Positions 7,663 to 7,751 of a stretch of 64,000 nt of DNA are shown piece after piece. Each line of letters starts with the position of its first letter. The first letter of the stretch is position 1. Origin of the DNA: a virus; the IMG/VR virus record IMGVR_UViG_3300045988_122518. The stretch is one strand, 5' to 3'. Both the position numbers and the translations under genes were made by a program. The notes under the pieces are model-generated. The model did no database searches. It saw only the letters and a list, made by a program, of their open reading frames with translations, and was not told the DNA's origin.

Positions 7663-7751
7663 TGCCCCGTAGTGTAATGGTTAACACGGCGGTCTCTAAA
7701 ACCGTTTTCCCTTTGAAGGAGTCGTTCTGGGTTCGAATCCCAGCGGGGCTG
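7663..7751 (+). tRNA. amber suppressor tRNA (anticodon CUA), type II with ~21-nt variable arm
   Basis: D arm GTGT-AATGGTTA-ACAC; anticodon stem GCGGT/ACCGT with loop CTCTAAA giving anticodon CTA; long variable arm TTTCCCTTTGAAGGAGTCGTT; T arm CTGGG-TTCGAAT-CCCAG; acceptor (T)GCCCCG/CGGGGC(T); no encoded CCA. Confidence 0.65.

Follow-up and report, generated by a model that had tools for sequence, protein, structure and literature searches.

Is the amber codon TAG a sense codon in a phage that encodes a tRNA able to read it, which amino acid would it specify, and how would such a tRNA be produced and charged? These questions are raised by a 64,000-nucleotide stretch of DNA from the IMG/VR virus record IMGVR_UViG_3300045988_122518 (the whole stretch is referred to as the window), in which positions 7663–7751 form a tRNA gene with the anticodon CUA. 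All genes of the window, among them the 15 tRNA genes listed by ARAGORN, lie on the + strand, to which all features described below belong. The original prediction, made from the sequence alone, had proposed a reassignment of TAG to glutamine in the manner of genetic code 15. Our analysis makes it highly probable that the window stems from a large uncultured phage with two coding regimes, which reads TAG as glutamine by means of its own tRNA(CUA), freed by an adjoining theta ribozyme and charged by the host. That phages recode TAG to Gln with a suppressor tRNA of their own and a theta ribozyme is already well established; what appears to be new is the architecture of the suppressor tRNA, with an open first pair next to G73, a hairpin showing the cognate anticodon and the recurrence of this design in opal suppressors.

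TAG is a sense codon in the window. The + strand coding density, calculated from greedy gene sets over the whole window, rises from 72.3% under code 11 to 84.3% when TAG is read as sense, and is 72.2% when TGA is read as sense (code 4); this comparison between codes had been suggested by the original prediction. Crude stop-to-stop totals of open reading frames (ORFs) did not discriminate between the codes and are uninformative because the genome is AT-rich, so that the greedy gene sets were used instead. Reading through TAG joins adjacent ORFs of the same frame and fills gaps in the code-11 ORF set (e.g., 3172–3768 and 8933–10426). The predicted ORF pairs that share one frame across a single TAG were recovered at TAGs 12954, 14153, 11049/11304, and 4581, and conserved domains continue through TAG as claimed: the Pfam domains NAGPA, Radical_SAM, SPASM, Phage_lysozyme2 (with six TAGs inside), Amidase_2, and DUF6273 are unbroken, and the alignment of the radical SAM protein to TIGR04115, an NCBIfam model of equivalog level, covers positions 4–359 of 359 with 403 bits (cutoff 350) and crosses two TAGs. 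The TAGs are conserved in IMG/VR contigs of 158–197 kb that are 90–99% identical, and the excess of third-position substitutions persists across TAG-containing ORFs (27, 21, and 70 substitutions by codon position in 8933–10426). Homologs of the endolysin-type protein (the lysin), including P0004, for which the standard code was verified, run on through all eight TAG sites, so that TAGs at the C-termini of shorter homologs, which the original prediction had named as evidence to the contrary, were not seen. Relatives cover 75 of the terminal stops; at these, TAA and TGA are swapped 13 times and none is changed to TAG, which is telling because TAA to TAG is a single transition. Moreover, 17 of the 19 code-11 ORFs that end in TAG fuse with the downstream ORF. 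The claim that no gene of the window ends in TAG is upheld by these counts, but not by the gene 7986–8348, which is considered further below.

Comparison with relatives identifies the amino acid as glutamine. At nucleotide identities of at least 80%, relatives show 58 alternations of TAG with another codon, of which CAA accounts for 18 positions and CAG for 10. TAA and TGG come next (4 each) and are confined to short ORFs of doubtful status or to 5′ extensions that precede the likely start. Since CAA is two mutations away from TAG, the alternation does not merely reflect mutational proximity. The lysin ortholog of locus L129 (72% identical) shows CAA where the window has TAG at three sites, while its own four TAGs align with Gln (two), Lys (one), and TAG (one) of the window. 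For a likelihood test, the proteins of the window, with TAG translated as X, were aligned to the code-15 ORFs of all fetched loci, and the residues opposite X were compared with the substitution profiles that the same alignments yield empirically for the individual amino acids, which makes the test self-calibrated. Glutamine ranks first by at least 15.9 nats, followed by glutamate (−25.3 nats when all alignments are used, −15.9 nats at 30–80% identity), and serine, leucine, and tyrosine fall below the sixth-ranked residue (−45 to −63 nats). In addition, the four paralogous zinc ribbons from which the glutamine assignment had been derived indeed carry, at the YW.C-x-C.CG position, CAA in two copies (3268 and 30225) and TAG in two (30021 and 36651); a fifth copy has AAA (36882). 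With regard to codon context, G follows the 60 sense TAGs in 10% of cases vs. 31% after codons generally, and T in 38% vs. 22%. The share of CAG among CAA and CAG codons is 49% in TAG-free genes, 21% in tail and lysis genes, and 7% in endonuclease-like genes, as if TAG had arisen at the expense of CAG.

The tRNA gene was confirmed by ARAGORN (7663–7752, anticodon CTA) and by the Rfam tRNA model (7663–7751, 57.8 bits, E 2.5e-12), with the anticodon loop CTCTAAA that had been predicted. The anticodon occupies 7696–7698 in the loop CUCUAAA, which closes a 5-bp stem. Up to the discriminator G73 (position 7751) the tRNA measures 89 nt; C74 is at 7752, and the CCA end is not encoded. Of the 16 tRNA or tRNA-like genes of the window, 15 encode CCA, the suppressor being the sole exception. 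The acceptor strands TGCCCCG and CGGGGCT leave a U1–U72 mismatch, the D arm is formed by GTGT and ACAC around an 8-nt D loop, and the acceptor/T branch has the normal lengths of 7 and 5. The variable region comprises 21 nt and holds a hairpin; with this long extra arm, the tRNA(CUA) is not an ordinary tRNA-Gln. An alignment of seven family members shows the cloverleaf 100% paired, with 12 covarying pairs. The extra arm, the lack of an encoded CCA end, and the theta ribozyme adjoining the tRNA at 7753–7807 were absent from the original account. Scans of the surroundings of the tRNA gene found no more promoter-like sites than in shuffled sequences and one terminator-like match, which is the tRNA's own anticodon arm.

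Relatives of this tRNA were collected from IMG/VR, first by means of the anticodon stem-loop and then in an unconstrained scan for TCTCTAAAAC, 22–30 unspecified bases, and GGGTTCRAA. The amber family thus recovered consists of 19 sequence types with varied acceptor stems and D arms, and its acceptor end can be compared with the bacterial Gln identity set, which comprises G73, U1-A72, G2-C71, G3-C70, G10, U34, U35, G36, A37, and U38; U1-A72 is also relied on by the amidotransferase route (PMC9976931). G73 and G10 are present in 19 of 19 types, and G2:C71 is invariant in the seven aligned sequences. Positions 1 and 72 form U-U in six types, A-C in six, U:A in five, A:U in one, and U-C in one, and never G:C or C:G. 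This pair is therefore weaker in the family than the canonical U1:A72, to which it may be functionally equivalent. C3:G70 takes the place of G3:C70 in the tRNA(CUA) of the window, and its anticodon C34-U35-A36 keeps U35 but lacks G36, which occurs only in the loop of the extra arm. The amber family has thus kept the Gln marks of the acceptor end apart from G3:C70, and has lost G36 from the anticodon. Six phage tRNAs(CUA) gave efficient UAG suppression in an Escherichia coli cell-free system, and were called known substrates of E. coli glutaminyl-tRNA synthetase (GlnRS) by the authors (PMC12636597).

The extra arm (7708–7720) consists of a 3-bp stem, 7708–7710 with 7718–7720, and the loop CUUUGAA (7711–7717), which has the form of an anticodon loop and carries the Gln anticodon UUG. 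All three pairs of the stem covary among the seven aligned members. Across the 19 types, eight stem variants and six loop variants occur, and YUG is central in every loop: CUCUGAA (nine types), CUUUGAA (four), UUCUGAG (three), UUCUGAA, UUCUGCA, and UUUUGAU. Two further types that were kept outside the 19 because of truncated flanks have CCCUGAA (L146) and CUCUGAA (L157). The loops follow the pattern Y, U (rarely C), three bases, A (rarely C), and one base, with a center of CUG or UUG, both of which are Gln anticodons. The commonest loop, CUCUGAA, differs from the true anticodon loop CUCUAAA only at position 36. Most types have a stem of 3 bp and a few of up to 5 bp, with 5–6 nt after it. The Gln-type motif was found in the arms of two of 170 other long tRNAs from the same loci (UCCA in 10 of 170), and among class II arms in 0 of 81 Leu and Tyr tRNAs and one of 71 Ser tRNAs; since the suppressor family members are related, these motif counts do not represent independent events. 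A Shine-Dalgarno-like AAGGAG in the extra arm was dismissed as it is not conserved in other family members. We know of no tRNA-Gln or tRNA-Trp with a second anticodon-like hairpin in the variable region; no description of such an arm was found in the searchable literature, and it thus appears to be undescribed.

If the arm mimics the cognate anticodon, opal suppressors inserting tryptophan should show CCA in its place. Long-variable-region tRNAs with the loop CUUCAAA were therefore scanned for, leaving the variable region unspecified, and 23–24 different tRNA(UCA) sequences were obtained, whose acceptor stems represent at least eight lineages. These tRNAs (loci L169–L286, e.g., L205, L197, L198, and L186) are 93–97 nt long and are labeled "SeC" by ARAGORN. 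UCCA, containing the Trp anticodon, is present in the extra arm of 22 of 23 opal suppressors. Their second arm mostly has a 5–6-bp stem and a 7-nt loop CUCCAAA (GUCCAAA and UUCCAAC also occur), in which U34 of the real loop CUUCAAA is replaced by C. CUCCAAA is the anticodon loop of tRNA-Trp. Many of these tRNAs(UCA) also have A1:U72 and G73, the bacterial Trp identity marks. Cross-carriage of the amber and opal arm motifs was seen in only one of 31 cases.

While the conservation of the extra arm is an observation, its role is a matter of interpretation. We propose, tentatively and with more doubt than confidence, that two-anticodon-arm suppressor tRNAs exist in which the variable-region hairpin displays the anticodon loop of the inserted amino acid, and that this second arm supplies the identity element lost by the suppressor anticodon (to GlnRS, TrpRS, or GluRS/GatCAB), so that the host enzyme charges the tRNA efficiently. 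The geometry of the amber arm poses a problem for this proposal, because an arm of 3 bp is too short to extend to the anticodon-binding domain of a GlnRS molecule bound to the same tRNA. Furthermore, other phage tRNAs(CUA), of 75–78 nt, do without the arm, so that it is not required in every case. It might act in identity or recruitment, bind another factor, or be left over from a duplication of the anticodon arm.

Immediately downstream of the tRNA, positions 7753–7807 fold into a minimal theta ribozyme, which resembles that of hepatitis delta virus (HDV), with a predicted cut at 7752/7753. G1 of the ribozyme (7753) lies 1 nt past C74 and 2 nt past G73. The fold is a nested double pseudoknot: P1 is formed by GGUGCU and AGCACU (7753–7758 with 7781–7786), including the G1-U wobble, P2 by AAACAAA and UUUGUUU (7761–7767 with 7799–7805), P3 by ACC and GGU (7768–7770 with 7778–7780), and P1.1 by CC and GG (7772–7773 with 7787–7788), while P4 is missing. 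J4/2 reads CUAA, with the putative catalytic C at 7795. L3 is UCCUCGC, presumably identical to the L3 of HDV. In an alignment of five sequences, 95.6% of the pseudoknot positions are paired vs. at most 48% in slid controls, and nine pairs covary. Compensatory changes affect five of six pairs in P1, three of seven in P2, and one of three in P3; P1.1 is only 70% paired. The G:U pair and C43-U-A-A are invariant in these five sequences. Two more versions of the ribozyme, with different helix sequences, were found at related loci, and in L051 and L052 a homologous ribozyme begins 1 nt after a tRNA-Thr; in the window, a ribozyme adjoins the suppressor tRNA only and none of the other tRNA genes. Minimum-free-energy folding gave z = +0.8 for the ribozyme and z = +0.4 for the extra arm alone, which is uninformative because pseudoknots are not modeled and the stems are short; covariation was therefore relied on.

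Theta ribozymes accompany 85% of the suppressor tRNA genes in such phages, 96% of the phages with theta-ribozyme suppressors are predicted to use code 15, few theta-associated tRNAs encode CCA, and an RNA ligase of the DRB0094 family is enriched in theta-ribozyme phages (PMC10879173; Kienbeck et al., 2024). The window agrees with this description in the double pseudoknot without P4, the G1-U wobble, the C in J4/2, the predicted cut within 5 nt of the tRNA 3′ end, the DRB0094-like RNA ligase, and the suppressor tRNA(CUA) without CCA. An exact search for the sequences of the tRNA(CUA) and the ribozyme in the part of the supplementary files of PMC10879173 that could be searched gave no match. We infer that the RNA is likely to cleave itself.

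The TAG codons are distributed very unevenly, and the recoding is partial. Eighteen genes of DNA and RNA metabolism, including topoisomerase II subunits, DNA ligase, RNA ligase, PhoH, a methyltransferase, phosphoesterases, an SPFH protein, and a vault-like protein, contain 0 TAG in 7,004 codons, compared with 31 in 4,843 codons of tail-fiber and lysis genes (Fisher p = 5e-13) and 22 in 1,245 codons of homing-endonuclease-like genes (p = 3e-17). The latter form the most TAG-rich class, with TAG amounting to 42% of the Gln-type codons. The proposed reading of TAG as a sense codon for glutamine stands, but the recoding is not genome-wide. The absence of TAG from the DNA and RNA metabolism genes means that a host with the standard code can translate them. 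In recoded gut phages, the alternative code is used by genes for structure and lysis but often not by those for replication, which was read as a switch during infection (10.1101/2021.08.26.457843). With its early/late partition of TAG, the window is dual-coded and matches this published code-switch model rather than plain code 15; by analogy, the switch from early to late genes may be timed similarly in this phage.

TAG in the tail-fiber, lysis, homing-endonuclease-like, and radical SAM/CXXX genes has to be read as Gln, and under the mechanism that we propose, the phage tRNA(CUA) at 7663–7751 would be its decoder. The tRNA would be transcribed as a fusion with the theta ribozyme, and cleavage at 7752/7753 would leave a tRNA that ends in G73-C74 with a 2′,3′-cyclic phosphate. 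This end would have to be healed and completed to CCA, possibly by the phage's phosphoesterase and nucleotidyltransferase genes. Charging is expected to fall to the glutamine system of the host, either through GlnRS directly or through a non-discriminating GluRS followed by GatCAB. The acceptor end carries the Gln marks G73, G2:C71, G10, and an already open 1:72 pair, and the loop of the variable-region hairpin is a copy of the Gln anticodon loop, a feature which the real anticodon has lost at position 36. Candidates for the healing of the cyclic phosphate end are the RNA-repair-type genes at 35461–46170, which are free of TAG save for an inserted nuclease gene (36552–37343). They encode an RlaP-like nucleotidyltransferase (35461–36267), Metallophos phosphoesterases (37386–38120, 43621–44340, and 45610–46170), a DRB0094-like RNA ligase (38835–40211), a NADAR protein (42086–42529), and a PNK-like AAA_33 kinase (45095–45625). 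The wider set of TAG-free genes at 28244–47856 looks like a suite for RNA repair and tRNA maintenance. It further includes a PHROG 850 "RNA-binding protein" (28244–29812), a protein with major-vault-protein shoulder and repeat domains (30761–33259), and an SPFH/flotillin-like protein (46471–47856), all without TAG.

Other explanations of the tRNA and the split ORFs have to be weighed against this mechanism. If TAG were an ordinary stop, the split ORFs would be pseudogenes or separate genes and the tRNA(CUA) would be incidental. Code 11 does list the fragments as separate ORFs, and 7986–8348 may end in TAG; yet single domains and an equivalog-level model span the TAGs, which are conserved with coding-type substitutions on both sides and are swapped with Gln codons but never with terminal stops. 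Besides, the fragments lack the start signals that they would need, and the lysin would be split into up to nine pieces, so that an ordinary stop is extremely improbable. Hardly more credible is a tRNA-Pyl with TAG specifying pyrrolysine. ARAGORN does label the tRNA "tRNA-Pyl," a label given to any CUA tRNA, and a radical SAM gene is present in the window. This enzyme is, however, a maturase for CXXX repeats with a SPASM domain and not PylB, PylS, PylC, and PylD found no match among the proteins scanned, and the 21-nt variable region, the 5-bp anticodon stem, and the 8-nt D loop are unlike tRNA-Pyl; in addition, TAG alternates with codons for Gln. The hairpin with UUG might also be regarded as the real anticodon arm of a tRNA-Gln(UUG), with the CUA hairpin as the extra one and TAG not decoded at all. 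In favor of this, its loop of 7 nt has the canonical form Y-U-NNN-A-R and contains a genuine Gln anticodon, and in the opal suppressors the second arm, with a complete 5-bp stem and a 3′ linker of 4 nt, resembles a normal anticodon arm that is followed by a variable loop. The second stem of the amber tRNAs, however, is mostly 3 bp long with 5–6 nt after it, whereas the CUA arm has the canonical 5-bp stem and a 1-nt junction to the D stem, and is aligned as the anticodon arm by Rfam. Moreover, the window needs a UAG decoder and ARAGORN shows no other candidate. We regard this arrangement as quite improbable.

That TAG is sense but specifies an amino acid other than glutamine, such as Ser, Leu, or Tyr in view of the long tRNA, or Glu, Lys, or Trp, is likewise improbable, although it has more to recommend it. 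At 89 nt with a variable region of 21 nt, the tRNA has the length of a class II tRNA, and SerRS disregards the anticodon and uses G73 and the long arm. Glu, Lys, or Arg are frequent at the TAG columns of distant homologs, and a published isotype model rates 19% of the phage tRNA-Sup as Trp-like. When the tRNA was compared with 650 phage tRNAs, the isotypes Asp, Val, Gln, and Trp came out about equal. Against these points stand the likelihood ranking and the codon alternations described above, in which CAA and CAG together account for 28 of 58 cases and no other codon for more than 4. Furthermore, G73 rules out Leu and Tyr identity, both of which need A73. A class II (Ser/Leu/Tyr) origin of the tRNA was rejected for this reason as well as for its arm of only 3 bp, for the similarity of its body to Ser, Leu, and Tyr tRNAs, which is among the lowest of all isotypes in the comparison with phage tRNAs, and for the low rank of these amino acids at TAG. 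Long tRNAs(CUA) with true class II bodies (Ser-, Tyr-, and Leu-like, with G1:C72) do occur in other IMG/VR viral contigs (L149, L150, L151, and L155), so that in some phages TAG may be reassigned to other amino acids; the arm loop of L149 contains CCAAAA.

Several observations nevertheless weigh against glutamine recoding by a ribozyme-freed tRNA(CUA). The gene 7986–8348 is coding-like (12, 8, and 26 substitutions by codon position) and appears to need TAG 8346 as its stop; this TAG is the first in-frame stop and lies inside a tRNA-Tyr gene (8326–8415), over which read-through would extend the protein by 62 codons. At distant homologs, the TAG columns hold Glu, Lys, Arg, and Asp as often as Gln. 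Such columns from standard-code proteins are polar and mixed (Q, E, K, R, D), which fits glutamine but is not decisive, and the assignment was for this reason mainly drawn from close and mid-distance relatives; the distant columns are also thin, as the N-terminal domain could be aligned for only about 12 of the 120 lysin homologs treated with MAFFT. The ribozyme matches its nearest Rfam family, RF02682, over 7753–7807 with only 26.1 bits (E 0.0037), the gathering score being 44 bits, and no theta family is among the Rfam matches reported. Finally, G3:C70 and G36, which serve as identity elements in E. coli tRNA-Gln, are missing from the tRNA(CUA), and a long extra arm is not known from any natural tRNA-Gln of class I. 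Leaving the curated Rfam score aside, the window has all sequence-level characteristics of TAG-to-Gln recoding and of the theta-ribozyme families.

As a side observation, about 120 nt after the tRNA-Tyr (8416–8540) show hardly any variation, not even in L008, a relative with 85% identity; an Rfam search of this conserved non-coding stretch matched no family.

Gut phages that are recoded from TAG to Gln (code 15) and carry suppressor tRNAs have been described repeatedly (Ivanova, 2014; Yutin, 2021, PMC7886860; Borges, 2021/2022, 10.1101/2021.08.26.457843), and Gln at TAG was shown in peptides for crAss-like phages only (Peters, 2022, PMC9523058). The window resembles these phages in the concentration of TAG in structural and lysis genes, the standard code of its replication genes, the phage-encoded tRNA(CUA), and the low GC content, and its gain in coding density is above the 5–10% criterion of Borges (2022) and Kienbeck (2024). 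In contrast to the code-15 gut phages, its most TAG-rich genes are the homing-endonuclease-like ones. With a genome of approximately 160–200 kb and alternatively coded modules that are scattered, it is similar to clades of the Jade, Sapphire, and Agate type as described; the window is without a terminase. The tRNA itself shares the anticodon CUA, U35, G73, G2:C71, G10, and a weak or open 1:72 pair with the E. coli supE tRNA-Gln(CUA), the su7 tRNA-Trp(CUA), and the Gln identity set, but differs from them in C3:G70 and in the true U1-U72 mismatch. Like class II tRNAs and allo-tRNAs (Mukai, 2017, PMC5389517), it is longer than 84 nt and has a paired arm between the anticodon and T arms; unlike class II tRNAs, it has an arm of just 3 bp, whose conserved loop resembles that of an anticodon arm, and a class I-like body.

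A Megablast search with positions 1–25000 against GenBank phages returned only short tRNA-Thr matches to cyanophages and no close relative. The GenBank contig CAMELE010000001.1 (L143; 163,874 bp), deposited as part of an "uncultured Mollicutes bacterium" metagenome-assembled genome (MAG), is 92–99% identical to the window over the tRNA region and therefore represents this phage lineage; either phage DNA was binned wrongly or the label hints at the host. Family tRNAs were also seen on MAG contigs labeled as Bacilli (L142) and Ca. Nanosyncoccus (L144), labels which are only host hints.

The genes with in-frame TAGs fall into several groups. Among those with homing-endonuclease-like features, the HNH/zinc-ribbon gene 3172–3768 (five TAGs) is missing from some close relatives, and the presence of the HNH-like gene 5238–5840 (six TAGs) varies. 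The corresponding segments 3076–3843 and 5164–5923 are precisely absent in L008, L026, and L027 and present in other close relatives; both genes lie between tRNA genes and behave as expected of mobile homing endonucleases. Two paralogous zinc-ribbon/DUF2726-like nuclease genes, 29901–30644 (two TAGs), which is inserted among TAG-free genes, and the above-mentioned 36552–37343 (five TAGs), and a GIY-YIG endonuclease gene (62704–63717, four TAGs) complete this group. The tail and surface genes include a Listeria-Bacteroides-repeat (Flg_new) surface or tail protein (8933–10426, seven TAGs), in which TAG 10013 is CAG in L008 and CAG 10388 is TAG in three relatives, and four tail-fiber-like genes with PHROG tail-fiber matches (10818–12080, 12082–12420, 12450–13697, and 13721–16306, with two, three, one, and one TAGs, respectively). 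In the tail module 17992–21890, TAGs are found in 17992–18780 (two), 20250–20750 (one), 20758–21381 (two), and 21357–21890 (one), but not in 18795–19166 and 19192–20280, and relatives carry CAA at TAGs 18157, 18436, 20472, and 20815. Cell wall-active proteins are represented by a NAGPA-SPOR enzyme (4104–4964), with TAG 4581 inside NAGPA and TAG 4209 nearer the N terminus, both of which are kept in four relatives, and by the lysin with Phage_lysozyme2 and Amidase_2 (53098–54399, eight TAGs). A Cys-rich CXXX-repeat protein (48554–49315, two TAGs) and the radical SAM/SPASM maturase matching TIGR04115 (49647–50939, three TAGs), between which a small TAG-free ORF (49342–49650) is located, look like a phage-encoded pair resembling those for ribosomally synthesized and post-translationally modified peptides. 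A standard-code-compatible block extends from 55006 to 62030, and its scored genes, 55006–55695, the topoisomerase II subunits (55679–57589 and 58298–60721), and an ATP-dependent DNA ligase (60813–62030), have no in-frame TAG.

Three further RNA elements were observed in the window. An RAGATH-33 RNA at 23975–24103, in a non-coding, tRNA-rich region, scored 123.3 bits in Rfam vs. a gathering score of 120.4. A weak match to a type-P1 twister ribozyme (497–547; 39 bits, gathering 67, E 5.5e-5) lies just upstream of gene 552–788. A tRNA-like element at 6332–6415, which was missed by ARAGORN, passes the Rfam tRNA threshold with 35.1 bits; its variable region is long, its anticodon arm is irregular, and it ends in CCA. 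Because of this element, the overlapping "ORF" 6313–6549 is spurious.

Annotation that does not take TAG as Gln into account loses approximately 12% of the coding sequence, both in this phage and in the 164-kb "Mollicutes" contig. Beyond annotation, the recoding literature has left open how a host synthetase charges a tRNA that reads a stop codon and how the code switch is timed. For charging, the tRNA(CUA) suggests as an answer an acceptor end that is pre-tuned for the glutamine system, combined with a hairpin that copies the cognate anticodon loop. For timing, as this is the only tRNA of the window that would need both a ribozyme cut and completion of its CCA end, its maturation may offer a point of its own at which the onset of late-gene translation is controlled. 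If the second arm does function as an identity element, these phages would have evolved a natural design for efficient suppressor tRNAs, which would be useful for genetic-code expansion.

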